From positions 1,041 through 65,040 of the forward strand of contig CAYYNT010000014.1 of NCBI GenBank assembly GCA_964473155.1: a stretch of 64,000 bases of DNA. Reading direction: 5' to 3'. Below, piece by piece: positions 1,891 to 33,499 of this stretch. The translations under genes and the position numbers were made by a program. The notes beneath the pieces were generated by a model that was not told the origin of the DNA, ran no database searches, and was given only the letters and a program-made list of their open reading frames with translations. Position 1 is the first letter of the stretch; each line of letters begins with the position of its first letter. This DNA comes from an uncultured Gemmatimonadales bacterium. Lineage in GTDB: Bacteria; Gemmatimonadota; Glassbacteria; GWA2-58-10.

Positions 1891-3795
1891 ATGATGCAGA
1901 CATTCCGCAACAACATGAAGGTTATCTTTTTCGTTCTGATTTTCTTTTTCGTAGGCTGGATGGCCGTCACCCTGACCGGTCTGGACGAATACCTGATACA
2001 GCAGAACAGGCAGGATTACCGCGGAATCAAGTATGCTGGTTCCGTGGGCGATGAAAAGATTGACCGTCAGCTCTACAATGACCGTCTTCGCCTGGCTATA
2101 CAGAGAGTCAGCAGCCAGCGAAGCAGCGGCGGCCTTTCCTCCTGGGAAGTGGAACAGCTCAGTGAGCAGGTCTGGTCTGAGATGGTCAGCGATGTGATCA
2201 TGGGCAAGGAACTCTCCAGCCGGAAAATCGGGGTCACGGATGGTGAAGTGGTGGAGTACATACGCACCAATCCCCTGCCCGAGCTGATGCAGGAACCGGC
2301 CCTGCAGACTGATGGACGGTTCGATTACGACAAGTATATGTCCGCCCTGGCTGATCCGCGCATGGCTCCGCTGGTGTCGGAACTGGAACTGGACGCCCGG
2401 AGCAAGATACCCAATTTCAAGCTCTTCATGGAAGTGGCCTCGCTTTACAAGCTCACGGACAATGAGCTGAAGCTCAATTACAAGGCCGCCGAGGAAAAAG
2501 CCACTGTCGAATACGTGCGTTTCGCCACCGATTCCCTGGTTCAGGATTCCGAAGCGCCGGTCAGCGATGAGGAAATCCGGAAATACTATGACGAGCACAA
2601 AGACAATTTCAGGCGTCCCGACCTGGCCTCGATATCTCTGGCGCTGCTGCCAATCCTGCCCGGCAGCAAGGACACCGCGCAGGTGCGCGACACTCTGCTT
2701 GCGGTCCTCGAAAGGTTCAAAAAAGGCGAATCCTGGGACAGCCTGACCCTGCAATATTCACAGGACCCGTTCGCTTCCAGCGGCGGCGATCTGGGATGGT
2801 TCGCCAAAGGCGATATTCAGGACAGCCTGATGTCCGGGATAGCCTTCACTATGAAACCGGGCGAAATCAGCGCTCCGGTCTTTGGAACCGACGGCATTTT
2901 TATCCTGCGTCTCGACAGTGTCAAGACTGTCGAGGGCGTCAAGCGCGTGCGTGCCCGCCGCATAGCCCGCATGATAAGCCCATCGCCCGAGCAGGTCAAC
3001 CAGGTGCGCACCCGCGCCCGCACGCTGCGCAATCTTATGCGGCGTGAAGGCGGAAGCTTCGAGGCCGTGGCTGCCGACAGCGCGCTGAACGTCCAGAACA
3101 GCGGAACGTTCGTTATCGGCGGACAGATACCGGGGGTCCAGGCCGGACGCGAGCTTATGGACTATGTATACGGATCCACCGCCGGAGCGATAAGCTATCC
3201 GATATCAGTCGGGTACGCCGGAAAAGAATGCGTAGCCCTGATCAAAGTCATCGAGCGGGTCGAAAGCGGAACCGTGCCCTTCGAGGATGCCGCCACCGCT
3301 ATCCGCGCCCAGCTCGCCCGCGAAAAGAAAATACCTCTGGCCGAGAAAAAAGCCCGTGAACTGATGACAGATTACGCTCAGTTCACGAGCCTCAGAGATT
3401 TCGCCGCGGCAAAGGGCCTTTCACTCGAAATCTCGCCCGAGTTCACCCGTCTCACCGGGTTGACCGGCGTGGGACGCAGCAACGCATTTGTCGGCACTGC
3501 TTTCGGTCTGCCGGTCGGAGTCAAGAGCGACCTGGTCGAGACCGGCGGCAACTATTACCTCCTGCAGGTTCTCAGCCGCACTGAAGCTGATATGAGCGCT
3601 TTTGAACAGGCCAGGGAAAATCTGAAGCAGCAGCTTGCAGGACAGAGAATGCAAAACCTCTATACTTTGTACAGCGGCGAGTTGTTTGAAAAAACAAAAA
3701 TAGAGGATCTCAGAAAAGTGGAAATGGATTCGACCGCCGCCAGAAAGCAGGCCGAAGCCCAGAAAAAGCAGTCCGATCTCAACCTGATCCAGTAG
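1891..3795 (+). CDS. PpiD/SurA-like periplasmic chaperone and peptidyl-prolyl isomerase
   Basis: N-terminal membrane anchor, SurA-N-like region, parvulin motif YSQDPFASSGGDLGWF; 634 aa. Confidence 0.88.
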   Translation: MMQTFRNNMKVIFFVLIFFFVGWMAVTLTGLDEYLIQQNRQDYRGIKYAGSVGDEKIDRQLYNDRLRLAIQRVSSQRSSGGLSSWEVEQLSEQVWSEMVSDVIMGKELSSRKIGVTDGEVVEYIRTNPLPELMQEPALQTDGRFDYDKYMSALADPRMAPLVSELELDARSKIPNFKLFMEVASLYKLTDNELKLNYKAAEEKATVEYVRFATDSLVQDSEAPVSDEEIRKYYDEHKDNFRRPDLASISLALLPILPGSKDTAQVRDTLLAVLERFKKGESWDSLTLQYSQDPFASSGGDLGWFAKGDIQDSLMSGIAFTMKPGEISAPVFGTDGIFILRLDSVKTVEGVKRVRARRIARMISPSPEQVNQVRTRARTLRNLMRREGGSFEAVAADSALNVQNSGTFVIGGQIPGVQAGRELMDYVYGSTAGAISYPISVGYAGKECVALIKVIERVESGTVPFEDAATAIRAQLAREKKIPLAEKKARELMTDYAQFTSLRDFAAAKGLSLEISPEFTRLTGLTGVGRSNAFVGTAFGLPVGVKSDLVETGGNYYLLQVLSRTEADMSAFEQARENLKQQLAGQRMQNLYTLYSGELFEKTKIEDLRKVEMDSTAARKQAEAQKKQSDLNLIQ

Positions 3796-4833: not shown

Positions 4834-4854
4834 GTCTGTATCCCCCAAAAAACC

Positions 4855-4983
4855 GGGGCCGTCCCAAAAGACCTTGCTTTTATTCTTTGTGAATCGTTGC
4901 AAAATCCAACGCGCGCAAAGAAATCATTCCTATAGAAATGACCGGCCGGTCACCCCTAAAAGGAAGGCTTATGGGACGTCCTG
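4855..4983. mobile_element. Decayed 129-bp MITE-like element, copy 1
   Basis: Ends ggggccgtcccaaaa / ttatgggacgtcctg; same length as 9889-10017 and about two-thirds identical over the first 41 internal bases by manual alignment; internal palindrome tgaccggccggtca (4939-4952). Confidence 0.6.
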
Positions 4984-5042
4984 ACAAGTCGATTGACGCC
5001 GCATTTCGAACCTCCCTCCACATCTGATCCGGAGGGCCGGTA

Positions 5043-5315
5043 TCAGATAAAGGACCGGAAAATGTAAAACGCGGCGAAAAGTCCCAGTACGCTCACCAGG
5101 TTTATTTTCAATACCAGCGGCCCCACGGTCAGCGCTATCAGAATCAGGTCGATCGAAACAGGCCCGAACTTTCCCACAACCGAGGTCAGGAAAAAGTCCT
5201 TCGCCACACCGTCCGGCATTATCGTGGACAGGAACTCACCCATGTAACCGCCCAGCAACATGCCTGTGATCAGGACGATACAGTATACGGCAAATTGCTT
5301 GCGCTGATGTTGCAA
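5043..5315 (-). CDS. Small membrane protein, DUF4321-like
   Basis: TTG start at 5315 behind AGGAGG; ...GMLLGGYMGEFL...GPVSIDLILIALTVG...KINLVSVLG pattern. Confidence 0.75.
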   Translation of the reverse strand: MQHQRKQFAVYCIVLITGMLLGGYMGEFLSTIMPDGVAKDFFLTSVVGKFGPVSIDLILIALTVGPLVLKINLVSVLGLFAAFYIFRSFI

Positions 5316-5346
5316 TTGATCCTCCTGGCCTGCGCCGTATAATCTT

Positions 5347-5967
5347 TCAGCTCCGCTCGACCCGCGCCGCGTTATCCTGACCGTTGTGCAACCGGCCGGA
5401 AGCCAGCAACGGTATCCGTCGGCAGAGATAGTACGAACATATGCCGGTGAAGCAGCCGAATACGAGACTGAAAACAACCACCAGCGGCCAGAGCAGGCCA
5501 ACTACTCCGCTGTCGGCCATGGCCGCTCCGACCAGAAGAAGTTGCGTGAAATTATGAGCCAGCGCCCCGGCCAGACTCACACCCACAAACCCGATCCAGG
5601 GCATCAGCCAAAGAGCCAGAGGCAGCATTACAAGGAATGACAGCATCCCGCCGCCGAAACTCAGCATGAAAAACGGCGTGAACAGCCCGCCCCGGAACAC
5701 CCCGCTGATAATAAGACGCATCACATGCACGGCGAGGGCTTCGCGCCAGCCCGCAGAGATCAGCAGGCTCAGAGTGACAATGTTGGCCAGTCCCAGCTTG
5801 ATCCAGGGCACCGGTTTCGGTATCAGAGCATCCAGCACGAACAGCACCAGCTCGAAAACGGTGGCCATGGCCACCAGGCTCAAGACCTCGGTGCGCCGTC
5901 TGACTCCCGGCAAGTCGCGCGCCGGATCGTAATAAACCGCCGCGGCGGCGTCCAGTGACTGCAACAT
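5347..5967 (-). CDS. Gx transporter family / heptaprenyl diphosphate synthase component I
   Basis: IPKPVPWIKLGLANIVTL, FMLSFGGGMLSF, GVSLAGALAHNFTQL; ATG 5967 with AGGAGA RBS. Confidence 0.88.
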   Translation of the reverse strand: MLQSLDAAAAVYYDPARDLPGVRRRTEVLSLVAMATVFELVLFVLDALIPKPVPWIKLGLANIVTLSLLISAGWREALAVHVMRLIISGVFRGGLFTPFFMLSFGGGMLSFLVMLPLALWLMPWIGFVGVSLAGALAHNFTQLLLVGAAMADSGVVGLLWPLVVVFSLVFGCFTGICSYYLCRRIPLLASGRLHNGQDNAARVERS

Positions 5968-5975
5968 CTTATCTC

Positions 5976-6386
5976 CTAACGGCTGAGAGCGTCCATACCG
6001 GTTGCTGCGCCACCTGTGCCGTCCGCCCGTTCCAAACGGGCCAGCACGCGATTCGGCGCGCATACTATCGCCCCTCCAGCGCGCCGCACCCAGCCGGTCT
6101 TTTCACAGATATGCGACGGGCAGTGTGAGTCCTCGAATTTAATCGCCCCGCCGGACACCACAACTGTAATATCGCCAAGAGCGCCCCGAACGCAGAGCGT
6201 GGTATCGGCTCCCAGGCCCAGCCGGGCCACCTCGCGGTTATCGGCCTGGATAACCGCCACGAGCGGTCCGCTCTGAGAACCTGACAGACCGTGGCGGTAG
6301 AAGCCGGCAGAAAAAACCACGACAATCAGCACCAGTATCAGATCGAGGAAAGTGAACAGTGGCGGCAGCCTGAAAGATTCACGCAT
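5976..6386 (-). CDS. NusG domain II-containing (DUF1312-like) membrane-anchored protein
   Basis: N-terminal TM; SHCPSHICEKTGWVRRAGGAIVCAPNRV = C-P-x2-IC-x3-GW...IVC-x-PN signature. Confidence 0.9.
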   Translation of the reverse strand: MRESFRLPPLFTFLDLILVLIVVVFSAGFYRHGLSGSQSGPLVAVIQADNREVARLGLGADTTLCVRGALGDITVVVSGGAIKFEDSHCPSHICEKTGWVRRAGGAIVCAPNRVLARLERADGTGGAATGMDALSR

Positions 6387-6404
6387 GGTTCCGCTCCACG
6401 CCGC

Positions 6405-7514
6405 TCAGGGCAGCGGCAGACCATCGAGGTCCGGATGCGGCAGATATTTCGAGAAACCGCTGGTGGCGCGCCAGAGCAGTTTCCCATCCTCGGTCCTGCC
6501 ATTTTCGACATAGATCACCAGCCCCTCGCACTTTTCTTTCTCCAGCAGGGCAAGCCCTTTTTCCGGCCCCAGGATGAAAGCCGCCGTGGACATGGCATCC
6601 GCCTCCAGCCCTTTTTCCGTGACCACGGTGATCCCGACCACTCCGCCATTGGCCGGATAGCCGGTTCGGGGATCGAGAATATGATGGTACCGGCGTCCTT
6701 TGTCGACAAAGAACCTCTCATAGTCGCCGGATGTGGCCACGGAAAGCCCCTCGTGCAGGGACAGCGCGCCGATATGGCTGTCCCTGCGGCGCGGATGCTG
6801 CACGCCCACGCGCCATGAAACCCCGTCCGAACCCACTCCCAGCACGCCGATCTCGCCGCCCAGATCGATCAGGGCATTCCTCACTCCGGCCTGGCGCAGC
6901 ACCTCAACCGCCCTGTCGGCGGCATATCCCTTCACGATAGCGCCCAACTCAATGATACCGCACCGCGCTCCCAGGCTCACGCTCCGGCGGTCCGCCGAAA
7001 GCTCCATATCGCGGCTGAGAGAGGTTGAGTCCAGACGGGACTTGATCTCAGACGAGTCCGGGGGATGATTGCGGCGGCGTTCCTCGCTGAATCCCCAGAG
7101 ACGGCTTACATCGCCCAGCGCCGGCTCGAACGCCCCTCCGGTCAAATCCCTGGTGCGCAAGGCCGCCGCCAGGACCACAGACATATCCTCGCTCAACTCC
7201 ACCGGCCCGGAGCCGCCCCGCGAAGCGTTCAACCGGCTGAGTTCGCTTTCCGGGTCATGCGGGTCGAACACCCGGTGCAGCCTGGCGATCTCGTCGCGGG
7301 CCAGATCCGCCAGACGTTTGGCCTCTTCCTTGTCCTGAAGGCGGATTTTCACTGACAGAAGTGTGCCCATGGTAAAACTGTCAAACGACCATGTGCGCAC
7401 CTCAGGCAGAGTTTGAGCGTCATCTCCCGAAGCAAGGTAGCGTATGCCGGCAATCAGTATTACCAACAGAACAGCGGCTACAATCCGGCCTTTCAATTTA
7501 CCTGTCACGTTCAA
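6405..7514 (-). CDS. apbE: FAD:protein FMN transferase (ApbE/FmnB family)
   Basis: TMGT, DPESELSRLN, LGAIVKGYAAD, DLGGEI, VATSGDYERFF, YHHILDPRTGYP, ADAMSTA; N-terminal anchor. Start codon uncertain (7514/7508/7496). Confidence 0.96.
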   Translation of the reverse strand: MNVTGKLKGRIVAAVLLVILIAGIRYLASGDDAQTLPEVRTWSFDSFTMGTLLSVKIRLQDKEEAKRLADLARDEIARLHRVFDPHDPESELSRLNASRGGSGPVELSEDMSVVLAAALRTRDLTGGAFEPALGDVSRLWGFSEERRRNHPPDSSEIKSRLDSTSLSRDMELSADRRSVSLGARCGIIELGAIVKGYAADRAVEVLRQAGVRNALIDLGGEIGVLGVGSDGVSWRVGVQHPRRRDSHIGALSLHEGLSVATSGDYERFFVDKGRRYHHILDPRTGYPANGGVVGITVVTEKGLEADAMSTAAFILGPEKGLALLEKEKCEGLVIYVENGRTEDGKLLWRATSGFSKYLPHPDLDGLPLP

Positions 7515-8508
7515 CTATCAGTTCCACCAGTTCTCTGAGTTTTGCAGTCCTGCCGGCATCCTTAAATTCCCCGGTGACCTCGATGGCCTCGGCGGCCAGG
7601 TCCGAAATCCGGTCTATAGCGTATTCTATGCCGCCGTTATCGATAACCAGCGCCGCCACCCGCTCGGCATCCTCAAGGCTCAACATGTCCTGCCCGGCAA
7701 ATATTCTTTCGATTTCAACGCGGGATACGGGGTCCATTACCTCCAGGGCATGGATAAGGGGCAGAGTCATTTTCTTTTCCCGCAAATCCAGACCTGTCGG
7801 CTTGCCGGTGTCTCCGGCATAGTCCGAGTAATCCAGAAGGTCATCCGTGATCTGGAAGATAGCTCCGAACAGGCTGCCGAAACGTTTCAACGGCTCCATA
7901 TCCCGCCCGTCGCCCACGAGCGCAGCAACCGCGCACGTGGCGCTGAACAGGCTGGAGGTTTTCTCATGCATGAAATTGAAATAATCCTGTTCCGTCGCCG
8001 CGAGGTCGCCTTCCATCGACATTTGACGCATCTCGCCCAGGGCCAGGCAGCGGCAGGCGGCGCTCATCTCGGAGATCACGGCCGGCGAGGCCAGTCCGGC
8101 CAGAGCCTCGAATGCCTGGGCCAGAAGATAATCGCCGATAATTACACTGGTCTTGTGATTCCATTTCGAATTGAGAGTCTCTATACCGCGGCGGTGAGTG
8201 GAACTGTCTATCGAATCATCGTGCACCAGCGAGGCGGTGTGTATTATTTCAACCGCTGCGGCCAGTGAGATCAGAGTGGAATGATCACAGCGTTCGCGGT
8301 CAGCCACCAGAAACATCAGCGTGGGGCGAATCATCTTGCCCGAGCGGCTGAACAGGTGGCCGATTGTCTGGTTGACCGGGGTGAAATCGGCTTGCAGTAT
8401 CCCTTCTATCCGGCTTCTGACATCCTGAAGTTCCCCATCCAAAGGAGCCTGAAGTCTTTCCAGCGCATCAGTCCAGTTTTTCTTCAGGCCGAGCAAGTTC
8501 TCACCCAC
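7498..8508 (-). CDS. Polyprenyl diphosphate synthase (HepT/IspB type)
   Basis: GKMIRP, FARM HDDSID, KTSSLF, SARM FQITDDLLD. GTG 8508 has GGAGG at 7 nt; ORF extends to 8571. Confidence 0.95.
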   Translation of the reverse strand: MGENLLGLKKNWTDALERLQAPLDGELQDVRSRIEGILQADFTPVNQTIGHLFSRSGKMIRPTLMFLVADRERCDHSTLISLAAAVEIIHTASLVHDDSIDSSTHRRGIETLNSKWNHKTSVIIGDYLLAQAFEALAGLASPAVISEMSAACRCLALGEMRQMSMEGDLAATEQDYFNFMHEKTSSLFSATCAVAALVGDGRDMEPLKRFGSLFGAIFQITDDLLDYSDYAGDTGKPTGLDLREKKMTLPLIHALEVMDPVSRVEIERIFAGQDMLSLEDAERVAALVIDNGGIEYAIDRISDLAAEAIEVTGEFKDAGRTAKLRELVELIVERDR

Positions 8509-8576
8509 TCTTGCGCCTCCATCCTTGCCCGGAGAAGGGTTCTCATGTGCCGCCACAGCGATCAACTTCACGATTC

Positions 8577-8605
8577 AAGCTAACATCCGGTCGATTTAAA
8601 GTCAA
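8577..8605 (-). promoter_or_regulatory. Candidate sigma70 promoter for the polyprenyl synthase-apbE operon
   Basis: Minus strand TTGACT-N17-TAGCTT with TG extended -10. Confidence 0.55.
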
Positions 8606-8753: not shown

Positions 8754-9848
8754 ATGTTCCGTCTGGCAATCTCCAACCTGTTCCAGCGCAAGATGAGAAG
8801 CGCGATCAGCGTGCTGGCCCTGGCCGTGGGCATCAGCCTGTTCATAGTCCTCTGGGGGCTGGTTAACGGCGTGTTGAACGAGTTCACCGAACGAATCCGC
8901 GGCATCGGAGCCGACATCACGGTCATCCGCACTGGCAGCAACCCGCTGCTGTTCGGCTCGGGAGTGCTCCCCTACAAGCTTGGAGACCAGCTCTCCACCA
9001 TCGAGGGAGTAAAGACAGTCAGCCCGGTGCTGATCTGGAAAGCCACGATCGGCAGCGCACCTTACAACATTTTCGGTATCGAGCCGCAGAAATTCAGCGA
9101 CCTGGGCGGCCAGCTCGTGTTCCTTGAAGGACGGATGCTCCAGGCGCCGGACGAGATGTTCATCGACAGCCGGATCGCTGCGCTGGAGCGCCTTTCAGTG
9201 GGCGACAGCCTGGAACTGCTCGGCCGTCATTTCAAAATTGTCGGGATCGTGCAACCGGGTGTGGGGACCCGTATTTTCCTGCCCTACCAGACCCTGGCCG
9301 AGCTTACCAGCCAGCCGGACCGGGTCAGCCTTTTCTTTGTCACCGCGCGCTCTCCCGAGCTGGTGGAAAAGGTATCGGCGCAGATCATCCGCGACATCAA
9401 GGGCGTCGAGACCCAGTTCATGTCGAACATCGCCGCTTCAATGGGCAAGTATATCGAGGCGCTCAACCAGTTCATCCGCGCGATCAACTACACCGCCCTG
9501 GTGATCAGCGCCCTGGTGATCCTGCTCTCGATGTACACCACGGTGGTCGAGCGCACTCGGGAGATAGGCATTCTGAAATCCCTGGGCGCTTCAAGGGGTT
9601 ACATACTCTCCACAATCATGACCGAGGCGCTCGTTCTCTCCCTGCTGGGCAGTCTGGCAGGAATAGCCCTGGCCGTGCTCAGCCGTAACGCCATCGAATG
9701 GAAGTTCCAGCTCATTACGGTGGAAATATCCGGCAGCCTGCTGATCAACAGCGTGGTTTTAGGCGTGCTGGTCGGCGCGTTGGGAGCGCTATACCCGGCG
9801 CTCTGGGCCTCGCGCCAGGACCCGATCAAGGCTCTGGTATACGAGTGA
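8754..9848 (+). CDS. ABC transporter permease, MacB/FtsX/LolE family
   Basis: One N-terminal TM, periplasmic domain, VVERTREIGILKSLGA, C-terminal YPALWASRQDPIKAL. Confidence 0.92.
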   Translation: MFRLAISNLFQRKMRSAISVLALAVGISLFIVLWGLVNGVLNEFTERIRGIGADITVIRTGSNPLLFGSGVLPYKLGDQLSTIEGVKTVSPVLIWKATIGSAPYNIFGIEPQKFSDLGGQLVFLEGRMLQAPDEMFIDSRIAALERLSVGDSLELLGRHFKIVGIVQPGVGTRIFLPYQTLAELTSQPDRVSLFFVTARSPELVEKVSAQIIRDIKGVETQFMSNIAASMGKYIEALNQFIRAINYTALVISALVILLSMYTTVVERTREIGILKSLGASRGYILSTIMTEALVLSLLGSLAGIALAVLSRNAIEWKFQLITVEISGSLLINSVVLGVLVGALGALYPALWASRQDPIKALVYE

Positions 9849-10719: not shown

Positions 10720-11067
10720 GTCCGGCCCGTCTATCCCTTCAGAGCAAGCCGGGCGCTATCAGCCATAAATCAAACATGGCTCTGAATATTGTGACCGACT
10801 GATAACTATAGTCAGGCAATGGTTATCAGTCTGCGCGCCTCCAGATTCATGGTTATGACGACAGCGGAGCAAGAAGTCCTGATGCCTGCCACTTGTGAAT
10901 CGGAATACATTATCAGAGATATAAAGCGGAAAACTCAAGAGGCAGGATTCTGTCCACCCCTGGAACTGTGAACAGAAAAAACAGTTGCTTTAAACAAAAT
11001 ATGCTTGTTACTTTTCAACGTCAACTTTCCAATATCTCCTGACGTTATACACCAAAAGGAATCTGAC

Positions 11068-12252
11068 ATGCGCGCGAGAGAGATTAAACCTGGAATAGAA
11101 GCCATCTGCTGCCCCCACTGGGAACGGCGGCTTTTTGATTCGCTGATTCCGCTGCCGGACGGAACAAGTTACAATGCCTATCTGGTCCGCGGCCAACAGG
11201 CAACCGCGCTGATCGACACTGCCGATCCCGCTTTGCAGAAAGAGTTGCTGGAGCAGTTGGGTTCGGTGGGTCAGATAGATTATGTGATTTCACAGCATTC
11301 GGAGCAGGATCATTCCGGCGCCCTTCCGGTTGTGCTCGACCGTTTCCCTTCCGCAAAACTGCTTTGCAGCGAAAAAGCCCGCGATATGCTGATAAGCCAT
11401 CTGGTCATTCCCGCGGAGCGTATACAGGTTGTGGCTGACGGCGAACAGGTTCCGCTCGGCGGAAAAACCCTTCAGTTTGTCTATACGCCGTGGGTCCACT
11501 GGCCGGAAACCATGTGCACCTATGTGCCCGAGGACAAATGCCTGTTTTCCTGCGACTTTTTCGGCTCGCATCTGGCGACGACGGACCTGTTCGTAACTGA
11601 TCCGGCAAAGGTTTATGAAGCCGCCAAACGCTATTATGCGGAAATCATGATGCCGTTCCGAAGGATCATCACCATCAATCTGGACAAGCTCTCCGGACTT
11701 GATTTCGATATGATTGCGCCAAGTCACGGACCGGTTTATGACAAACCGGATTTCATTCTCGATGCTTACCGCGACTGGGTATCGCCAAACATGAAGAATG
11801 AAGTGGTTCTGCCCTACATCAGCATGCATGGCTCGACGGAAATGATGGCCAAATATCTGATTTCAGCGCTGGACGCCAAAGGCGTCTCCGTACAGCCGTT
11901 TGATCTGGCGGTGACGGACATCGGCAAACTGGCCATCGCGCTGGTCGATGCCGCCACGCTGATAGTCGGCGGCCCGACAGTCCATGTCGCCTCCCATCCG
12001 GCGATCCATTACGCCGCTCATCTCGCCAACGTGCTGAAACCCAAACTCAAATACGCCGCCATTTTCGGGTCGTACGGCTGGGGCAGCAAAGCGGTCGAGC
12101 AAATCGCCGGGTTGATCCCGAACCTTAAAGTTGAAGTGCTCGCAACTATAATGCAGAAAGGGCTGCCGGACGCGACAACTTACGCGCAACTCGACGAACT
12201 CGCGGCGGCGGTGGCCAAGAAACATGCTGAAAACCCGAATGTGCTTACATAA
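11068..12252 (+). CDS. fprA: FprA family flavodiiron protein (O2/NO reductase)
   Basis: GTSYNAYLV, HSEQDHSG, HWPE, FSCDFFGSH, IAPSHGPV and flavodoxin motifs SMHGSTE and FGSYGWG. ATG 11068 with AAGGA RBS. Confidence 0.95.
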   Translation: MRAREIKPGIEAICCPHWERRLFDSLIPLPDGTSYNAYLVRGQQATALIDTADPALQKELLEQLGSVGQIDYVISQHSEQDHSGALPVVLDRFPSAKLLCSEKARDMLISHLVIPAERIQVVADGEQVPLGGKTLQFVYTPWVHWPETMCTYVPEDKCLFSCDFFGSHLATTDLFVTDPAKVYEAAKRYYAEIMMPFRRIITINLDKLSGLDFDMIAPSHGPVYDKPDFILDAYRDWVSPNMKNEVVLPYISMHGSTEMMAKYLISALDAKGVSVQPFDLAVTDIGKLAIALVDAATLIVGGPTVHVASHPAIHYAAHLANVLKPKLKYAAIFGSYGWGSKAVEQIAGLIPNLKVEVLATIMQKGLPDATTYAQLDELAAAVAKKHAENPNVLT

Positions 12253-16776: not shown

Positions 16777-17748
16777 TCAGATTCTTCCCAGAGCAGCCAG
16801 TTTTTCCTGAACCTTTCCAAGATAATCGTTCACCCGCTCCGCATCCTGAAGCCCCAGGGCGCCGAGCATGACCTTACCCGCCTGCATGACCACAACTTTC
16901 TCGTAATACGGGTCTTTGGCCGAGAACCAGGCCACCTCGTCCTGGCTGTGGTCTTCCAGATCTTTGGCGTATTTGGTCATGAAGGTCTTATAAGATTCGT
17001 AGCTTTTCTGAGCCTCATCCACCGAATCGTGCAGGATGAAAAACAACTTGTACTCGGTATCACCGTCCTTGTACTCTGCGGTGAAACCATTTTTCAGGTC
17101 ACTCTGTCCCAGGACATCGCGCGCCAGGTAACGCACGGTGTTGGGGATCTCATTCTCAGGCGGGAAAGCCTCCAGCTCCGGCGGAATGACCGCCTGCCCG
17201 CCAATGTTGGCCCTTGCAGCTTCAGCCAGCTTGCGCAAGGCCGGTTCCACCTCGCCGCCTTCCTTGAACGAGGTCACTTTCACGTAGTAGGCTCCCTGCC
17301 AGAAATGCAGGGCGTTGCCGGTAAAATAACCCTGGCAGCCGATCTGGTTGTACTGGGCTTCGTAGGGACGCTCAGAGGAGTAAATGCCGAAACCGCAAAG
17401 TTCATCCGCCATGCGGTAGACATCCACGACAGCCTGAAGGCCGTCCGGTCCCTGGTAGTCGGCGGTGGCCACTTCCTGGAAGTTATAGATCAGGTATCCC
17501 TCAGCCCCGCCGTTTATGTATTCCCAGAGGTTATCGGCGTTGAATACGCGCGGTTCACCGCTGCGTGTCCAGCCCTCGGCTGCCTGGCCGGACGGCAGGA
17601 TCGAAAGGGCCGCGCCGCCTCCGGCCGCCGACCCGGCAGCGGTTTCTTCCTGCTTGTTCTTTGCGCCACCGCAACCGGCGGTGATTACAGCCGCAACGAC
17701 CAGAAGGGCCGGAAGAAAGGAACCCTTCGCAGAACTGATATTCATCAT
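16777..17748 (-). CDS. DUF6599-like lipoprotein
   Basis: Lipobox ITAGC; FNADNLWEYINGGAEGY and VYRMADELCGFGIYS resemble DUF6599 as recalled. Confidence 0.72.
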   Translation of the reverse strand: MMNISSAKGSFLPALLVVAAVITAGCGGAKNKQEETAAGSAAGGGAALSILPSGQAAEGWTRSGEPRVFNADNLWEYINGGAEGYLIYNFQEVATADYQGPDGLQAVVDVYRMADELCGFGIYSSERPYEAQYNQIGCQGYFTGNALHFWQGAYYVKVTSFKEGGEVEPALRKLAEAARANIGGQAVIPPELEAFPPENEIPNTVRYLARDVLGQSDLKNGFTAEYKDGDTEYKLFFILHDSVDEAQKSYESYKTFMTKYAKDLEDHSQDEVAWFSAKDPYYEKVVVMQAGKVMLGALGLQDAERVNDYLGKVQEKLAALGRI

Positions 17749-17794
17749 GATCTCAGCGCTCCTCAAGTTTTATGATATATAGTTTTCAGTATCC

Positions 17795-19075
17795 TCAATT
17801 GCGCCACCAGCGCCTTTCGCGTACATACCGGTCAAACTCCTCGCGGTTGCGCAGGTTCTGATTGAAAAAATACAGCACCAGATTTTCAACCTCGTAAACC
17901 CAGATCTGGTTCATACGGCTGCCATAGATCTCAGTGGGCGGTCCGAGCAGGATATAGACCTCACCCATGTTCGTTTCCCAGCCCTCGCGCTGATCGGTGC
18001 TGAAATGGTTGTTGGCGTAATCGATCCGCTCGAAGTACTGGACTTTCAGCTCGTTGATCGCCGTGGCAGGCACGGGGTCCATTTTCTGCCAGAAACCATC
18101 CAGCGCCGCCTGGCGTTGATCTTCCGGAAAAGCCATCAAAGCCTTTAGCTCTTTTTCGCTGGCCAGATAACGCAGATAGCGTATCTCCTGCATGTAGTTG
18201 TCATTTACCCAGCTTTCGGACTTGACGATACGGAAAGTGAAACTGGTCGCGCGCGCCAGAGACTGGTTCTTTGCGTCCCGCAGATATACATCCACCTCGT
18301 AGCTGCCCAGTCCAAGAGTTTGCGAGGGAAGACGGATAAGCTTTCGCTGAGTCAGCAGGCCATCCGCAAGAGGCGCCTCAACCCGCGGGAAAACCATCAG
18401 CGCTTTCACCACCTCAGCGGTCAGCTTCCAGCCGCTGGGCGGGTTGGATGAGCCCGCGTAAACCTCAACCAGAAGGAATATAGGCTGCCCGGAGGCATAT
18501 TGCAAGGAAGCGCTCTTGATGGCGGATATTTCAACTTGCGGATTGATCAGTGAATCTGAATTCTCCACAGCCTCGTAGAAAAAAGGGGTGCTCAGCTTAG
18601 GCAGCTTCTCTGTCAGATCCGGAATATTGACCGACACCCGTCCGTTGCCGTAAGTATGGGCGTTCAGGTCTTTGACCTCGGCGAATCCCTCATATTTGCC
18701 CGGCTTCACGTTCATTTCGGTCTGGAGCGGATCGAAATGCTTCTCGAGTGTGGTCTCGTCGTAGCTCGGTACTCGCAAATCCTTTCGCCACAAGCCGCGT
18801 AAAATATCATGAGATTCGGTCTCCCGCATACTCAGAAAAGCCTCATAAGAGCCCTCGAAATGATTTGTCCGCCTTAAAAAAAGCAGGTTCTGGTTTTCCA
18901 CAGCCACGGTGATCAGACAGCGGGTGCTGTCTGCGGGTCCGCGGAAAAACGCCATTCTGAGATTAAAAGGGATTTCGTTCTCGAAGTTCTGGACTTCCTG
19001 CCCATAAAACTGCGATATATTCAAACCGGCTAACAGTAAGATCACCAGCGTGATTCTTGCCGATCCAGAGGACAT
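17795..19075 (-). CDS. GWxTD domain-containing exported protein
   Basis: Signal peptide; FWQKMDPVPATAINE, YFERIDYANNHF, GWETNMGEVYILLGPP. Confidence 0.88.
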   Translation of the reverse strand: MSSGSARITLVILLLAGLNISQFYGQEVQNFENEIPFNLRMAFFRGPADSTRCLITVAVENQNLLFLRRTNHFEGSYEAFLSMRETESHDILRGLWRKDLRVPSYDETTLEKHFDPLQTEMNVKPGKYEGFAEVKDLNAHTYGNGRVSVNIPDLTEKLPKLSTPFFYEAVENSDSLINPQVEISAIKSASLQYASGQPIFLLVEVYAGSSNPPSGWKLTAEVVKALMVFPRVEAPLADGLLTQRKLIRLPSQTLGLGSYEVDVYLRDAKNQSLARATSFTFRIVKSESWVNDNYMQEIRYLRYLASEKELKALMAFPEDQRQAALDGFWQKMDPVPATAINELKVQYFERIDYANNHFSTDQREGWETNMGEVYILLGPPTEIYGSRMNQIWVYEVENLVLYFFNQNLRNREEFDRYVRERRWWRN

Positions 19076-19192
19076 TTTCTCTCCCCAGACTCCAGGTTTC
19101 TGCGGACAGCCGATACCTTTCGATAAGCATAATACACTGGAACAGCCGAAGCGTTCGCGAAGATTCAAACCACCAATCCGTCGCCTGACAGT

Positions 19193-21523
19193 TCAGCGCT
19201 TCACCACAAACCGCGTGTTGCGCTTCGTCATCCGTCCCGCCAGGTTCAGGTCCTCCACCCGCACCGACAGTTCGTAGACTCCATCCGGATTGTCCGAGAT
19301 GTCTATCGCCACTTCCTCCTGCACCAGATCACGGCCAAGAGGCACACGGGTCTTATCCGCCGAGAGAACGACTTTTTCCTCGCCCGGACCGGCGCCGACA
19401 ATGGATTTGAAGGTATCCAACATGGCGCCGAAAACATTGCGGTCGCGGCTGACCGTGCTGACTACATATGTCACCCGGTAACTGCATGTCCCGTCCGCCG
19501 CGGGCTTCAGGTTATAGATCTCCTGATAGGCAAACATTTTTTCAGCAGGATGGAACACCTTGGAGGGATTGGGATAAATTTCAAGCCCGTAACGTTTGAA
19601 TTTACTCGAATCCGCCGGAGAGGCAAAAATATTCCTGGCGGTCAGTATCTGGCTCGATTGCAGCGAATCCCCGCTGAAAGAATCCATGCGCAGACTGCCG
19701 TTATATTGCCCCACGGCCTCGCCGTTCTGTATCCTTATAAAGTAACTGTAGTCACCGGCCGGAATATCCAGGCCGCCCAGATCGAGCACCAGGCGGTCAA
19801 CCAGGTCATGCGGATTGAACGAGCTTTTGTGCTGCTCCACCTTCTCAATCCGGCCCACCTGCCGCCACTGCCTGTCATAGAGCAGCATCTCGAAAGCGAT
19901 GTCATAGTAATAAGCATCCGTTTGCCGCAAGATGGTTATATCCCGTCCCGGCACTCCGAGGAATAATTCCAGGTTTCCACTGTCAGACGCCTGACTGCGA
20001 AAACTTACCAGATCATAGAACGAACGCAGGGAACGCCGGTAAGGCGACTCCACGCTTTCGCTGTGCAGCGCCCGCCTGATGAAAAGAGCATTGTCCGCCT
20101 CCTCTTCCATCAGAGTGAACGGATCGCCCGGATGATTGAGCAGACGGTAATAGATGCCTGTTCCGACCTCCTGCCGGCTGCCGTATAGATCACGCAGCCA
20201 GTTCAGGCGAGCCGCCTCCTCGTCGTCCCGCGGGTAGACATTGCCCTCCATGTCGGCCAGGAAGTCATTCTGGCGTCCGATCACGGATGAAAGGGCCGTA
20301 ATAAGCTGATATTCCTGGTTGCCGTTGAGAGCGGCGAAATGCAGCACCAGGTCCGGCGCGTCCGGACGGTAGTAGACCCAGGTCTCATTGGGAAGGAGCC
20401 CTTCGCCGATCTGGGAGAATGTCCTGTCAGGCTGTCCGTGACGGATATAAACCAGCCCGCGGTCGTCATATGGCACATCGATATCCGGATAGTTCGCCGC
20501 CAGCGGACCGACCGAGGGATTGCGCCTGGCGAACGGAACCCGGTACAGGCTGTCAGCCCCGGCCAGACGGTAATAGTGGCGCAGAAGGCGCATACCGGGG
20601 GAAAGATCCAGTTCGTGGTCCCGTTTGAACCAGAACTGACGGAAAAACTGTTCGGCCTGGGCCGGAGGCGTCTGATCATACTCCTCCTGCTCCTCCTCAT
20701 CCGCAATCATCACCACATCGTCCCAGTAGGCCTTGAATTCCTCGCGCCCCGATATATTTTTCACTCCCTCCCAGTACAGACGCAGCACCCTGTCGTAATT
20801 GCGCCGCCCGAGGCTGATCTTTACCATTTCAAGCCCGGCCAGCGGATCGATCCGTCCCTGCTCGGCCTCGATTATCTCCGACAGCACCTTTTCGGCGTCC
20901 TCCAGGTTGCCCAGAGCCTTGTTCAGAAGGGCCAGCTTGAAACCCAGGTCGCGGTTGAATCCACCCAGACCGAGCGAGAGTTTCAAATGATTCAAAGCTC
21001 TCTCGAGGTCATCCTTCCCATAACGTTTCATGCAAGCCGAACCAAGCCAGTAATGGGCCTCGGCGCTGCCCGGCGAAAGTTCCACCGCTTTTTCGAAACA
21101 CCTGATCGCCCGCGAAACATTGTCGAGATCGAACCAACGCTCCATTACCTGTATCAGTCGCGCCCGGCTGTCCTTGCGCTCCAGATGGCAGCGCCCCACG
21201 CCGATCCAGGCTTTCTCGTCCTCCGGCGCAAGCTTCAGAGCCCGGTCGAACGCCTGGCGCGCCGATTCAGGATCATCCCGCTTAAGACGTTCGGCTCCCA
21301 GACGCAGCAATGAATTCAACTCGGTCGCGAGAGTGTCCCGGCGGACTATCTGACTCCGCAGCAGAAGCGAATCCGGCTCGACCGCGGCATTCAGGACACA
21401 AGCCGCCGCAAGAATGAAAGCCGGCAACAGGAAAACAGCCGGATTGAAATGACGTGCAGACATATGTGCGAACCTGATCCGCGAGGTATGGAGGCGCTTC
21501 TCCCGGCCGGTTGTATTCATCAT
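19193..21523 (-). CDS. TPR plus GWxTD-like domain exported protein
   Basis: Signal peptide, multiple TPRs, FFRQFWFKRD, DDRGLVYIRHGQPD, ETWVY and C-terminal beta-rich domains. Start uncertain. Confidence 0.82.
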   Translation of the reverse strand: MMNTTGREKRLHTSRIRFAHMSARHFNPAVFLLPAFILAAACVLNAAVEPDSLLLRSQIVRRDTLATELNSLLRLGAERLKRDDPESARQAFDRALKLAPEDEKAWIGVGRCHLERKDSRARLIQVMERWFDLDNVSRAIRCFEKAVELSPGSAEAHYWLGSACMKRYGKDDLERALNHLKLSLGLGGFNRDLGFKLALLNKALGNLEDAEKVLSEIIEAEQGRIDPLAGLEMVKISLGRRNYDRVLRLYWEGVKNISGREEFKAYWDDVVMIADEEEQEEYDQTPPAQAEQFFRQFWFKRDHELDLSPGMRLLRHYYRLAGADSLYRVPFARRNPSVGPLAANYPDIDVPYDDRGLVYIRHGQPDRTFSQIGEGLLPNETWVYYRPDAPDLVLHFAALNGNQEYQLITALSSVIGRQNDFLADMEGNVYPRDDEEAARLNWLRDLYGSRQEVGTGIYYRLLNHPGDPFTLMEEEADNALFIRRALHSESVESPYRRSLRSFYDLVSFRSQASDSGNLELFLGVPGRDITILRQTDAYYYDIAFEMLLYDRQWRQVGRIEKVEQHKSSFNPHDLVDRLVLDLGGLDIPAGDYSYFIRIQNGEAVGQYNGSLRMDSFSGDSLQSSQILTARNIFASPADSSKFKRYGLEIYPNPSKVFHPAEKMFAYQEIYNLKPAADGTCSYRVTYVVSTVSRDRNVFGAMLDTFKSIVGAGPGEEKVVLSADKTRVPLGRDLVQEEVAIDISDNPDGVYELSVRVEDLNLAGRMTKRNTRFVVKR

Positions 21524-21640: not shown

Positions 21641-23260
21641 TCAGGTCAATCCCGAGCCGTAGATATCAAGCAGCATCTGGTTATTGGGCGAGCGGCTCTC
21701 ACCTATGGAGGTCACGTACACTCCGGGTTTATCCACCAGCGGGCAGACAAATTCGCACATTCCACATCCCACGCACAGGTGCGGATCGATATGCGGTTGC
21801 TTGACCTTGATCCTGTTCTCGCCGGCGCTGTCCAGGACCTCGACCTCCTCGAACCAGATCGCTTTCTTGGGCGTGGGGCACACCTCCTCGCAGACAATGC
21901 AGTTGTGCCCCTGGCTGTAGGGGATGCAGCGGTTCTTGTCGAAAAAGGCCAGGCCTATTTTGGTCTGGTGCTTCTCCTCCAGAGTTAGCTTTTTGATCGC
22001 CTGAGTGGGGCAGACCTGCCCGCAGAGAGTGCAGTTGAATTCGCAGTAACCCTGCTGCATCCTCAGGTACGGCGTCCAGAATCCCTCCAGCCCGGCTTCC
22101 ATCAGCGTGGGCTGTATGGCGTTCTTGATGCAGACTTTCATGCATTCGCCGCACTTGACGCAGCGGTGCAGGAACTCGGTCTCGTCGACCGCTCCGGGCG
22201 GACGGATAAGGGCCGGATTGAATTTTCTCGACTCCCTGACATCGCCACCCGAGGCGAACGGCGGAGTCTTGCGCGGGTCGATCCGGCAGAGAGCCACCGC
22301 CCCGACCGCCGCGCCAAGCGAGGTCACCACCTGACGCTTGCTGTAATCCACGCTCCGCTCCTTCCGCGACGGCAGGCCGAAACCGAACGAAATCGAGCGG
22401 CTGGGGCAGGATTCAACGCAGTTCCAGCAATACAGGCACTCGGTGCGCAACCAGGTTTCCGAGGACTGCGGCTCGCAGGCGCCCTCGCAATTGCGGCTGC
22501 ACAGAAGGCAATTGGTGCAGGTTTCCTTGTTCACTCTCAGGCGAAGAAAATTGAAACGGCTCAGGATTCCGAGCAGCGCCCCCAGCGGGCAGAGAAAACG
22601 GCACCAGAAACGCCGCCGCACCTGGTTGAGAACGGCGATGGCCGTGAAGATAAGGCCGATAAAAAGGCCCTGATAGAAATACGGCTGCTCGAACGACAGC
22701 ACCTGACCGCGCAGAAAACCGAACACAGGCTGGATGACTGTATTGAGCCAGGGCCAGTCCAGCGCGAACAGCGGATAGAAAGCGGCGCGAACCAGCCAGT
22801 TGAACACCGGATTGACCGCCAGGGCAAATGAGCGGATGAGCACGGAAAAAGGATCAAGGAAGCCCACTATCTGAAGGCCGAACACCGAAGCCAGCAGAAA
22901 AAACACCGTCGCCAGGTATTTCCAGCTCTGACGTTTGTCATATCTGTTTCTGGTGATCTTGTCCTTGGGCTTTCGTCGGTTATGGCTCAGAATATGGTTG
23001 AGCGTGCCCATCGGGCAGACCCAGCCGCAGAAAAAGCGTCCCAGGCTCACGGTCAGTCCGACCACCGCCAGGCTCCAGAGCAGCATCCGCGGGACGCTGT
23101 GTTCGGCCAGAAAAGTGGAAATCGCCACCAGCGGATCGATATCGAAAAATATCTTCACCGGATAGGCGATCGTATCGGTCCCCTTGTATTCTGTCATGAC
23201 CAGCAGAAAGAGGAACAGAACGAAAAACACTGTCTGGCTGATCCGTCTCGCGTTGCGCAT
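21641..23260 (-). CDS. Membrane-bound polyferredoxin (NapH/MauN-like 4Fe-4S binding protein)
   Basis: TM helices with FFCGWVCPMG and FWCRFLCPLG; CxxCxxCxxxC clusters (CTNCLLCSRNC, CLYCWNCVESC, CVKCGECMKVC, CEFNCTLCGQVC, CIVCEEVC, CVGCGMCEFVC). Confidence 0.92.
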   Translation of the reverse strand: MRNARRISQTVFFVLFLFLLVMTEYKGTDTIAYPVKIFFDIDPLVAISTFLAEHSVPRMLLWSLAVVGLTVSLGRFFCGWVCPMGTLNHILSHNRRKPKDKITRNRYDKRQSWKYLATVFFLLASVFGLQIVGFLDPFSVLIRSFALAVNPVFNWLVRAAFYPLFALDWPWLNTVIQPVFGFLRGQVLSFEQPYFYQGLFIGLIFTAIAVLNQVRRRFWCRFLCPLGALLGILSRFNFLRLRVNKETCTNCLLCSRNCEGACEPQSSETWLRTECLYCWNCVESCPSRSISFGFGLPSRKERSVDYSKRQVVTSLGAAVGAVALCRIDPRKTPPFASGGDVRESRKFNPALIRPPGAVDETEFLHRCVKCGECMKVCIKNAIQPTLMEAGLEGFWTPYLRMQQGYCEFNCTLCGQVCPTQAIKKLTLEEKHQTKIGLAFFDKNRCIPYSQGHNCIVCEEVCPTPKKAIWFEEVEVLDSAGENRIKVKQPHIDPHLCVGCGMCEFVCPLVDKPGVYVTSIGESRSPNNQMLLDIYGSGLT

Positions 23261-24228
23261 CAGAGAGCCACCTCCCGGATCAGGGACGCCTCGGGGCTGA
23301 TCGAGCCGAGGCCTCTTTCCTGCCCCAGCGCCAGGTATCGTATCTCCGCCGGATCGATCCCGAACAGGCCGGCCGCGCGGCTGTCAGCGGCAATGGGATC
23401 GATCGAGGCGATGACCGTGTCGGTCTGCTTGACATCCGACAGGCTGCCGCCCGAGGGACCGTTGCCGGTGAGTATGCGCACCGCGTCAACCACTGTCAGC
23501 GTGGGAGCGAAGAACGCCGTCATTTCGACAATGCTCAGGTTCACATCCTGGTGCAACTGGTTTCGCCGTCCGCCCATCAGACCGTAAAAATTCTTCATCC
23601 CGATTGTCAGGCGGCTCAGGCTGTGATGTTTGGCTATCGGAACGTTGATTATCTTGTCAACTTCCATTGCCGGCTGGTACACCGGCCACTGCTTGATCAG
23701 CTCGCCGCCCACCTCGATCTGTTTGAAATTGAAATCTTCGAGATAAGGGCATTCGGCCCCGGCCTTCTCAGCCGCTTCCTTGATCCCGCTGCGTACGTAG
23801 CAGCGCCGCGGGTCGTTGATCGTGTTGTCAAGCACTGTCACTTTTGAGGCTCCGGCCTCCAGGCACAGAGCCACCAGGGCGGTGACAACGGCCGGGTTTG
23901 TGGTGGCGGCCTGCTCCGGCACACGGTCCCAGCCGATATTGGGTTTTATCATAACCTTGTCGCCGCGCGAGACAAACACGCCAATGCCGCCCAGTTCCTG
24001 AATGGCGCGGCGAGTGATTGCATCCGCGTCCTTGCCGGTCACCACGCTCATCACCGGGCCGGAGGTTTTCACCGGCTCCCGGCGGCGCGGCAGGGCTGCG
24101 CCACCGCCCGCGGTAGTCTTCGCACCGCCGCCCTCACCCTTCCCGGCGTCTCCGCCGCATCCAGCCATGCCGGCGGCCAGCGCCCCGGCTCCCAGCACTT
24201 TCAGAAATTCCTTGCGCCCAATATGCAT
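23260..24228 (-). CDS. DUF362 family protein with Tat-like lipoprotein signal
   Basis: GRKEFLK...AGMAGC signal; IKPNIGWDR, ATTNPAVV, INVPIAKHH, GMKNFYG. Start 24228 or 24234. Confidence 0.88.
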   Translation of the reverse strand: MHIGRKEFLKVLGAGALAAGMAGCGGDAGKGEGGGAKTTAGGGAALPRRREPVKTSGPVMSVVTGKDADAITRRAIQELGGIGVFVSRGDKVMIKPNIGWDRVPEQAATTNPAVVTALVALCLEAGASKVTVLDNTINDPRRCYVRSGIKEAAEKAGAECPYLEDFNFKQIEVGGELIKQWPVYQPAMEVDKIINVPIAKHHSLSRLTIGMKNFYGLMGGRRNQLHQDVNLSIVEMTAFFAPTLTVVDAVRILTGNGPSGGSLSDVKQTDTVIASIDPIAADSRAAGLFGIDPAEIRYLALGQERGLGSISPEASLIREVAL

Positions 24229-24474
24229 CTCCACTTTTCTCCCCCGCTCCAAAACTGAACCGGTGTCAGGTCCGAAATGTTGTTTTCATTATTCAGTGAA
24301 ACTGTACTCACCTTCTCTGACAGCAGGCATGCCATTTATTTAGATTTCTCTTACATAAAAAGGCGTGCTTAAATCCGATGCGTCCACTGCCCAAAGAAAA
24401 TCACAGCAAAAGGATAAACTATTTTAATAGCAATCCAGGACCACTTTGTCAACTATTTCAGTCCCGGAAAAGTT

Positions 24475-32636: not shown

Positions 32637-32653
32637 GGACGACTCCGGCCGTA

Positions 32654-33499
32654 TCACTGCGAGTCGGCGGTTTTCTTCTTGCGCGCCACTACCAGCGAGA
32701 TCCAGACACTGATCTCGTAGAGGAAACACATCGGCACGGCGACCAGAATCATACTGCCCGGGTCGGGCGGCGTAACCACCATGGCGATGATGAAGATTAC
32801 CAGGATAGCGTGGCGCCGCTTGGACCGAAGGAACTCGGGAGTCACCAGACCCAGCCGGGCCAGCAGCATGACCACGATAGGAAGCTCGAACACGGCCCCG
32901 GTCAGGAGCACCATCTGGGTGGCCATGTCCAGGTACGAGCTGGCCGTGAGCATGAACTCGGTGGAGGCGAACTGGAATTTGGACAGGAACGCCATGCCCA
33001 GGGGCAGAGTGACATAGAACGCCATCACCGCGCCCAGCACGAACATGAACAGAGAGGCGAACAGGAGCGGGAACACAACCCGCCGCTCTTTCTTCAGCAG
33101 AGCCGGGGCGACAAAGGCCCAGGCATGGTAGATTATGGCCGGGGAGGCAAACAGCAGGCCAAAGAAAAAAGACAACTTCATGGCGATCATGAAACCCTCT
33201 GTGGGCTTGATGATCATTAATTTACCATCCTTCAGATACGGCAATACCGGTTTGACTATTATTGCGAGCAGATCGTATTTGGTGTTCAGCCAGAAACCCA
33301 GGACAATACCGGCAAAGATAAATGCCAGGCACCAGAGGATGCGCTGACGGAGCTCTTCCAGGTGATCCAGGAAAGGCATCTCGCTCCTGCGGTTGAGATC
33401 GTCCTCGTCGGGATTTCCGTACTCATCGAACTCTTTTGCCGCCTCGACCGCGCCGCCTGGATTATCCACCTTCTCGGGAAGGTCCCTGCTTTCTGCCAT
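32654..33499 (-). CDS. tatC: Twin-arginine translocase subunit TatC
   Basis: MPFLDHLEELRQR, WAFVAPALLKKER, FELP, TPPDPGSM, LYEISVW. Confidence 0.96.
   Translation of the reverse strand: MAESRDLPEKVDNPGGAVEAAKEFDEYGNPDEDDLNRRSEMPFLDHLEELRQRILWCLAFIFAGIVLGFWLNTKYDLLAIIVKPVLPYLKDGKLMIIKPTEGFMIAMKLSFFFGLLFASPAIIYHAWAFVAPALLKKERRVVFPLLFASLFMFVLGAVMAFYVTLPLGMAFLSKFQFASTEFMLTASSYLDMATQMVLLTGAVFELPIVVMLLARLGLVTPEFLRSKRRHAILVIFIIAMVVTPPDPGSMILVAVPMCFLYEISVWISLVVARKKKTADSQ

Follow-up and report, generated by a model that had tools for sequence, protein, structure and literature searches.

Does a tightly packed set of five genes in a Glassbacteria genome represent the core of the flavin-based extracellular electron transfer (EET) locus of Listeria, now in a diderm bacterium, or did these genes come together by another route? 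The genes lie at 5043–8571 on the minus strand of a 64,000-nucleotide stretch of contig CAYYNT010000014.1 (the whole stretch is here called the window). An earlier sequence-only reading had taken them as one module for maturation of quinones and flavinylated proteins, with its DUF4321 member as a possibly new component. All five co-oriented open reading frames (ORFs) scored above their Pfam gathering cut-offs, and this part of that reading was confirmed. With regard to their history and function, we consider it probable (at about 0.78) that the operon is composite, with an ancestral pair of genes for a polyprenyl synthase and DUF4321 having been split by a cassette for flavin adenine dinucleotide (FAD) export and flavinylation, apbE-eetA-eetB, whose substrates would be encoded outside the window and to which synthase and DUF4321 would be mere neighbours. 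The gene limits given here were set by ribosome-binding sites together with independent gene calls on contigs encoding identical proteins.

7498–8508, minus strand: polyprenyl synthase, predicted IspB type, 336 aa; PF00348 (polyprenyl_synt), 196.6 bits
6405–7514, minus strand: ApbE, FAD:protein FMN transferase family, 369 aa; PF02424, 267.8 bits
5976–6386, minus strand: NusG_II protein, EetA homologue, 136 aa; PF07009, 73.1 bits
5347–5967, minus strand: Hpre_diP_synt_I ('Gx transporter') protein, EetB homologue, 206 aa; PF07456, 114.1 bits (cut-off 30)
5043–5315, minus strand: DUF4321 protein, 90 aa; PF14209, 29.8 bits (cut-off 27)

The cassette and its place in Glassbacteria

Glassbacteria form a class of Gemmatimonadota in GTDB (PMC11316326), and the DUF4321 and PF07456 proteins have homologues of 59–99% identity in metagenome-assembled genomes (MAGs) named Candidatus Glassbacteria or Gemmatimonadota. 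The cassette was found in ten further Glassbacteria genomes, in the same order and at the same position wherever the contig reached, with seven of them spanning all five genes. In other Gemmatimonadota (loci L022 and L024) the synthase gene is instead directly followed by that for DUF4321, and in two contigs of Gemmatimonadaceae (L095 and L096), where the synthase stop codon abuts the DUF4321 start, the order is TPR protein, synthase, DUF4321, TatA, PpiD (on the minus strand), TPR protein and aroQ. The synthase and DUF4321 genes of this synthase-DUF4321-tatA operon are orthologous to those of the window, and the same PpiD, TPR and aroQ genes flank both:

206–640: aroQ
637–1551: TPR protein
1891–3795: PpiD

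What differs in Glassbacteria is that three genes are inserted and that tatA does not come next; the 64-kb window as a whole yielded no TatA. Just 3' of DUF4321, at the position taken by tatA in the other lineages, there is a mini-ORF of 11 codons (4969–5004, minus strand, MRRQSTCQDVP) with a strong GGAGG as its ribosome-binding site.

The simplest history suggested by these gene orders is that the cassette entered between synthase and DUF4321 in an ancestor of Glassbacteria. A 210-aa gene call in which the C-terminus of a polyprenyl synthase is fused to DUF4321 (P0053) is informative on this adjacency and points the same way, to a synthase-DUF4321 pair that predates the cassette. Because the whole neighbourhood is conserved among Glassbacteria, their shared five-gene order reflects common descent, and insertion between two older genes makes the resemblance to the Listeria locus only partial and DUF4321 probably a bystander. 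The notion of a coherent quinone-plus-flavinylation module thereby lost its footing, the synthase-DUF4321 pair being older in Gemmatimonadota than the cassette.

One Glassbacteria genome, GWA2_58_10 (L007, 5852–8267), carries synthase, ApbE and DUF4321 genes with eetA and eetB absent and 51 nt between the latter two of the three genes. Its ApbE is orthologous to that of the window and its gene has the same 17-nt overlap with that of the synthase. Because the triad is intact in other Glassbacteria, this arrangement would most simply be explained by a later loss of eetAB; it is also an example of ApbE being retainable without EetAB.

Looking beyond the class, we inspected the three of the nearest EetB relatives that had long contigs (L092, L093 and L094), all of which have ApbE, NusG_II and PF07456 genes in the exact order of the window. 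The triad stands alone in L092, follows two FMN_bind genes in L093 and follows CbiQ and rnfCDGEAB in L094; since it keeps its order beside differing systems or none, the conserved unit is apbE-eetA-eetB. Gene order thus gave a divided answer, with the five-gene order largely not conserved beyond Glassbacteria and the three-gene core strongly so.

This triad is an already described portable cassette, found here in a new host lineage. Among 4,214 genomes with eetB, eetA was co-localised in 3,328 and apbE in 2,169 (PMC9973259), and the genes in the window belong to the same three Pfam families, are likewise adjacent and keep the order seen in L092–L094, with a predicted EetB fold of the RibU-like type of energy-coupling factor (ECF) S-components and a predicted export signal or anchor in ApbE. 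The differences from the published association are the diderm Gemmatimonadota host, the lack of ECF-T, ECF-A, Rnf and FMN_bind genes nearby, a longer EetB that is at most 43% identical to those outside the class, and the setting between polyprenyl synthase and DUF4321. Clostridial rnfCDGEAB-apbE-eetA-eetB clusters, such as L094, have the identical cassette order downstream of a flavinylated complex, and in the published examples at hand they sometimes adjoin DUF4321, whereas the window is without rnf genes.

Whether DUF4321 belongs with the cassette was evaluated by a survey of its gene neighbourhoods. Its homologues were sampled as 150 diverse representatives at E values up to 1e-3, and 80 loci were taken from contigs of one genome per species, 10 from Glassbacteria and 70 from other lineages (other Gemmatimonadota, Calditrichota, KSB1, Marinimicrobia/Neomarinimicrobiota/Fidelibacterota, Zixibacteria and others), whereupon the ORFs of each locus were searched with the window proteins. 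The 80 loci were collected with a single peptide pattern from an eight-sequence alignment, P[DEG]GV[VA]K[DE][FV]F, which biases them to Gemmatimonadota and the other lineages sampled and misses Firmicutes; the best 120 matches of a profile search aimed at Firmicutes DUF4321 were mostly from Gemmatimonadaceae, and the context in Clostridia is that of two examples from a published table together with locus L097.

Within these bounds, ApbE, EetA and EetB genes were found beside DUF4321 in the ten Glassbacteria loci only, and within 8 kb of it in none of the 70 others (0/70), while a polyprenyl synthase gene was near it, among those 70, in L022, L024 and, distantly, L084 only. Outside Glassbacteria, what comes before DUF4321 is in most cases pssA (CDP-alcohol phosphatidyltransferase), accompanied by psd, or else purS-purQ. 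In 42 of the 70 loci a TatA/B/E gene comes directly after DUF4321, with BatA/VWA or gatA next. Such DUF4321-tatA loci occur within L023–L091 (for example L034, 8001–8279), as well as in L095 (5001–5558) and L096 (5001–5551). In the two clostridial examples from the table, DUF4321 precedes maf-radC or mreB-mreC and stands once directly after eetA-eetB (Dethiosulfatibacter) and once after rnfB; the adjacency to maf recurs in L097. Seen in synteny, then, the neighbours of DUF4321 are pssA/psd, purQ/purS and tatA and not cassette genes, which speaks against its proposed role as a new component; it is probably a bystander and not a flavinylation-specific partner. No mention of DUF4321 was found in the literature searched. 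It is predicted to be a small membrane protein with two transmembrane helices, modelled at residues 3–32 and 73–89 with low confidence (predicted local distance difference test score, pLDDT, 65). One 528-aa homologue (P0126) has the N-terminus of DUF4321 joined to a long repeat region with a PEP-CTERM-like tail and is, like the P0053 fusion, likely a gene-call or frameshift artefact.

The encoded proteins and their predicted roles

The earlier placing of EetA and EetB in the NusG-II and Gx-transporter families held true, with NusG_II (PF07009) genes being labelled EetA in Data Set S1 of Rivera-Lugo et al. 2023 in mBio and with eetB homologues being defined there as PF07456 (both PMC9973259). 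The EetB homologue of the window gave a confident AlphaFold model (pLDDT 87), for which the top 15 Foldseek matches in the PDB were all ECF S-components, the best being RibU (5kc0 and 3p5n) at target-normalised template modelling scores of 0.69–0.71. Its sequence identity is at least 59% inside Glassbacteria and at most 43% elsewhere, and it is longer, with 206 aa, than its relatives with about 168–175 aa. The model suggests an ECF S-component-like membrane protein that we predict to be a subunit of an FAD exporter. In Listeria, EetB is an ECF S-type subunit that, together with FmnA (ECF-T) and EcfA/A', exports FAD for the ApbE enzyme FmnB, and deletion of eetA there gave no EET phenotype (PMC9973259). 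The NusG_II protein of the window matched Lin0431 of Listeria innocua (3ld7, 2.6e-5) and has one transmembrane segment (residues 4–35).

The ApbE domain is of full length (positions 1–263 of the 266 in PF02424), with Listeria FmnB as the best PDB match (7esa, E 4e-45) and with ApbE/Ftp structures from Treponema pallidum among the top ones (4xdt and 4ifu, about 4e-42). Its N-terminus is hydrophobic in a hydropathy analysis (residues 3–31), and the protein is predicted to carry a signal or anchor and to be periplasmic.

For the synthase, the best matches among solved structures were octaprenyl and decaprenyl synthases (3rmg, 2e-48), with solanesyl synthases also among the best and HepT component 2 coming behind at 4e-33. 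Both DDxxD motifs are present, as DDSID and DDLLD (in ASLVHDDSID and ITDDLLD), and small residues occupy positions −4 and −5 ahead of the first motif, which is the rule for a long-chain product. The protein is thus a predicted long-chain trans-polyprenyl diphosphate synthase of the IspB and not the HepT type. A DmkB-like origin gained no support from these structure matches, and the gene is found at its ancestral Gemmatimonadota position beside DUF4321, not as a dedicated DmkB acquired with an EET locus.

Taken as a cassette, the three inserted genes most likely serve, as judged from these similarities, to export FAD and to flavinylate a periplasmic target whose gene lies beyond the window. 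EetB, with its RibU-like fold, would move cytoplasmic FAD across the inner membrane with the single-pass EetA as its accessory partner, and ApbE, as a membrane-anchored or secreted enzyme of the periplasm, would use the exported FAD to attach flavin mononucleotide (FMN) covalently to Ser/Thr of its targets. Candidates for these are periplasmic redox proteins such as RnfG, NqrC or other FMN_bind proteins, or a DUF2271 or DUF3570 protein. The synthase would provide the respiratory quinone with its prenyl side chain, and DUF4321 would be a general small envelope protein; their co-transcription with the cassette would follow from its landing site and would not mean that they make up an EET-like machine together with it.

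Alternative explanations and missing partners

That the five genes work as one module for maturation, equivalent in a diderm to the Listeria EET core, can be argued from a compact operon that unites four of the eight gene families of the Listeria EET locus, from the conserved order in Glassbacteria, from FmnB being the best structural match of ApbE and from DUF4321 following eetB also in Dethiosulfatibacter. The locus of Listeria monocytogenes consists of dmkA, dmkB, fmnA, fmnB, pplA, ndh2, eetA and eetB, so that the families of ApbE (FmnB), EetA, EetB and polyprenyl synthase are shared with it. However, a search covering all annotated non-ribosomal genes of the 64-kb window found no PplA, Ndh2, DmkA (UbiA), Rnf, Nqr or FMN_bind protein among them and no Pyr_redox-type protein, in agreement with the earlier account of what is absent. 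In the survey of Méheust et al. 2021 (PMC8238504), EET was scored as present only where the flavinylation cluster encoded a membrane Ndh2, and neither this operational marker nor the FMN_bind lipoprotein PplA, DmkA or the ECF-T protein FmnA is encoded in the window, although DmkA and FmnA may have genes elsewhere in the genome. Gene order also differs from that of EET loci, for example one from Paenibacillus listed in Data Set S1. As the synthase is nearer IspB-type than HepT-type enzymes, as the synthase-DUF4321 adjacency occurs without ApbE or EetAB in other Gemmatimonadota, as none of the 70 DUF4321 loci outside Glassbacteria has the cassette genes, and as the conservation within the class spans the whole neighbourhood and so reflects common descent, we regard a single EET-like module as unlikely.

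The statement that neighbouring exported proteins hold no [ST]GA[ST] flavinylation substrate also stood, the sole match to this motif among real window genes being in an Opp operon, within its peptide-binding protein (SBP_bac_5), at about chance expectation. A substrate or redox system encoded elsewhere in the genome, as first proposed, agrees with none having been found within the window. A 539-aa NapH-like membrane polyferredoxin (Fer4_5 and several 4Fe-4S domains) and a translationally abutting DUF362 protein of 330 aa, whose lipoprotein signal is of a twin-arginine-like kind (together 21641–24252, minus strand), may form a periplasmic redox module. As the system served by the cassette we rejected the polyferredoxin (21641–23260) as unsupported. 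It is more than 10 genes away (about 13 kb), outside the five-gene neighbourhood used in PMC8238504, it lacks an FMN_bind domain, and a flavinylation motif is absent from it as well as from its DUF362 partner. In the Gemmatimonadota genomics literature examined, we found nothing on Rnf, Nqr or flavins, and no Glassbacteria genome was among the rows consulted in the supplementary tables of the two flavinylation studies.

The cassette could instead serve flavin acquisition, with a periplasmic ApbE-like FAD pyrophosphatase releasing FMN that a RibU-like EetB would import. Treponema pallidum has an FAD pyrophosphatase of this kind in its periplasmic ApbE-like protein Ftp, and the structures from that organism among the top ApbE matches, the structural closeness of the EetB model to RibU, which is the S-component of riboflavin importers, and the lack of any substrate protein or ECF module nearby would all suit such a function. 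Still, Listeria EetB does not replace RibU in flavin uptake and is required for flavinylation (PMC9973259), and in the nearest relatives the triad adjoins FMN_bind and Rnf genes, which points to flavinylation; uptake thus seems quite improbable.

Several observations weigh against the composite operon that we favour. The 17-nt overlap of the synthase and apbE genes is kept across Glassbacteria and implies coupled expression, with a functional meaning that could have arisen after insertion. The GC content of the cassette genes (0.61–0.62) exceeds that of their flanks only slightly and stays inside the range of the window, so that composition is no independent evidence of transfer. Both the transferase activity of ApbE and the direction of transport by EetB are predicted from homology only; no flavinylation substrate was identified in the 64-kb window, and neither CbiQ (ECF-T, FmnA) nor an ECF ATPase was found among its annotated genes. 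The adjacency of eetB and DUF4321 in Dethiosulfatibacter, finally, makes a weak link between DUF4321 and the cassette possible.

We hold it to be very unlikely that DUF4321, perhaps along with the synthase translated with it, came to work together with the cassette in Glassbacteria after the insertion. DUF4321 might then, for example, take the place of the ECF-T scaffold that EetB lacks here, or it might tie the export and attachment of flavin to the export of folded redox proteins, the latter being suggested because it stands immediately before tatA in 42 sister-lineage loci and after eetB in Glassbacteria and in a Clostridia genome. That the cassette is by now a remnant, in decay or without function, as the absence of eetA and eetB in the GWA2_58_10 lineage and of a substrate or ECF partner in the window might hint, is hardly credible in view of three intact ORFs with good ribosome-binding sites, full-length Pfam matches, a confident EetB model and cassette proteins that are 56–81% identical across many MAGs with family-invariant residues retained.

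Transcription signals, surroundings and significance

Within the operon, the 17-nt synthase/apbE overlap is followed by gaps of 18, 8 and 31 nt, the second of these lying between eetA and eetB. The synthase is likely started at a GTG after GGAGG, with the ORF itself being open to a GTG at 8571, and about 70 nt upstream of that likely start there is a promoter-like element, contained in the 245-nt intergenic region that separates the operon from a divergent gene. The signals were as follows:

8577–8605, minus strand: promoter-like element, read by eye; TTGACT (8605–8600), 17-nt spacer, TGtTAGCTT (8585–8577)
4853–4867, minus strand: terminator-like hairpin with T-run, 3' of DUF4321; consensus match only

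The promoter elements reported earlier are readable in the sequence and plausibly make up a putative extended −10 promoter. A consensus promoter scan, however, did not return this site and listed a weaker one at 8775–8748 instead, so that calling the promoter clear was too strong.

The divergent gene (8754–9848, plus strand) encodes an ABC permease of the FtsX/MacB type with no ATPase gene adjoining, an arrangement that is kept in all Glassbacteria loci extending that far. Further on, at 11005–12252 (plus strand), lies the gene for a flavodiiron-like protein with ODP/metallo-beta-lactamase and flavodoxin domains, which suggests detoxification of oxygen or nitric oxide in an anaerobe, and 16777–21523 (minus strand) holds a run of genes for a DUF6599 protein, a GWxTD-domain protein and a 776-aa TPR protein. 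LptD (30117–32729) and TatC (32654–33499) agree with a diderm envelope.

To our knowledge, the class Glassbacteria has no cultured member, and the present analysis places a published cassette for FAD export and flavinylation in this diderm class of Gemmatimonadota. It would be tempting, and is unsupported, to annotate DUF4321 as a component of flavinylation or EET, or the locus as a marker of EET capacity, and such an annotation could spread to metagenome surveys in which 'EET genes' are scored by homologues of eetA, eetB, fmnB and dmkB. The adjacency of DUF4321 to tatA and to pssA/psd offers a modest lead on its function, in envelope biogenesis or Tat. At one chromosomal position, finally, the genomes compared here form a natural series with no cassette, with ApbE only and with the full cassette, and this series would lend itself to asking if diderms need EetAB to flavinylate periplasmic proteins.

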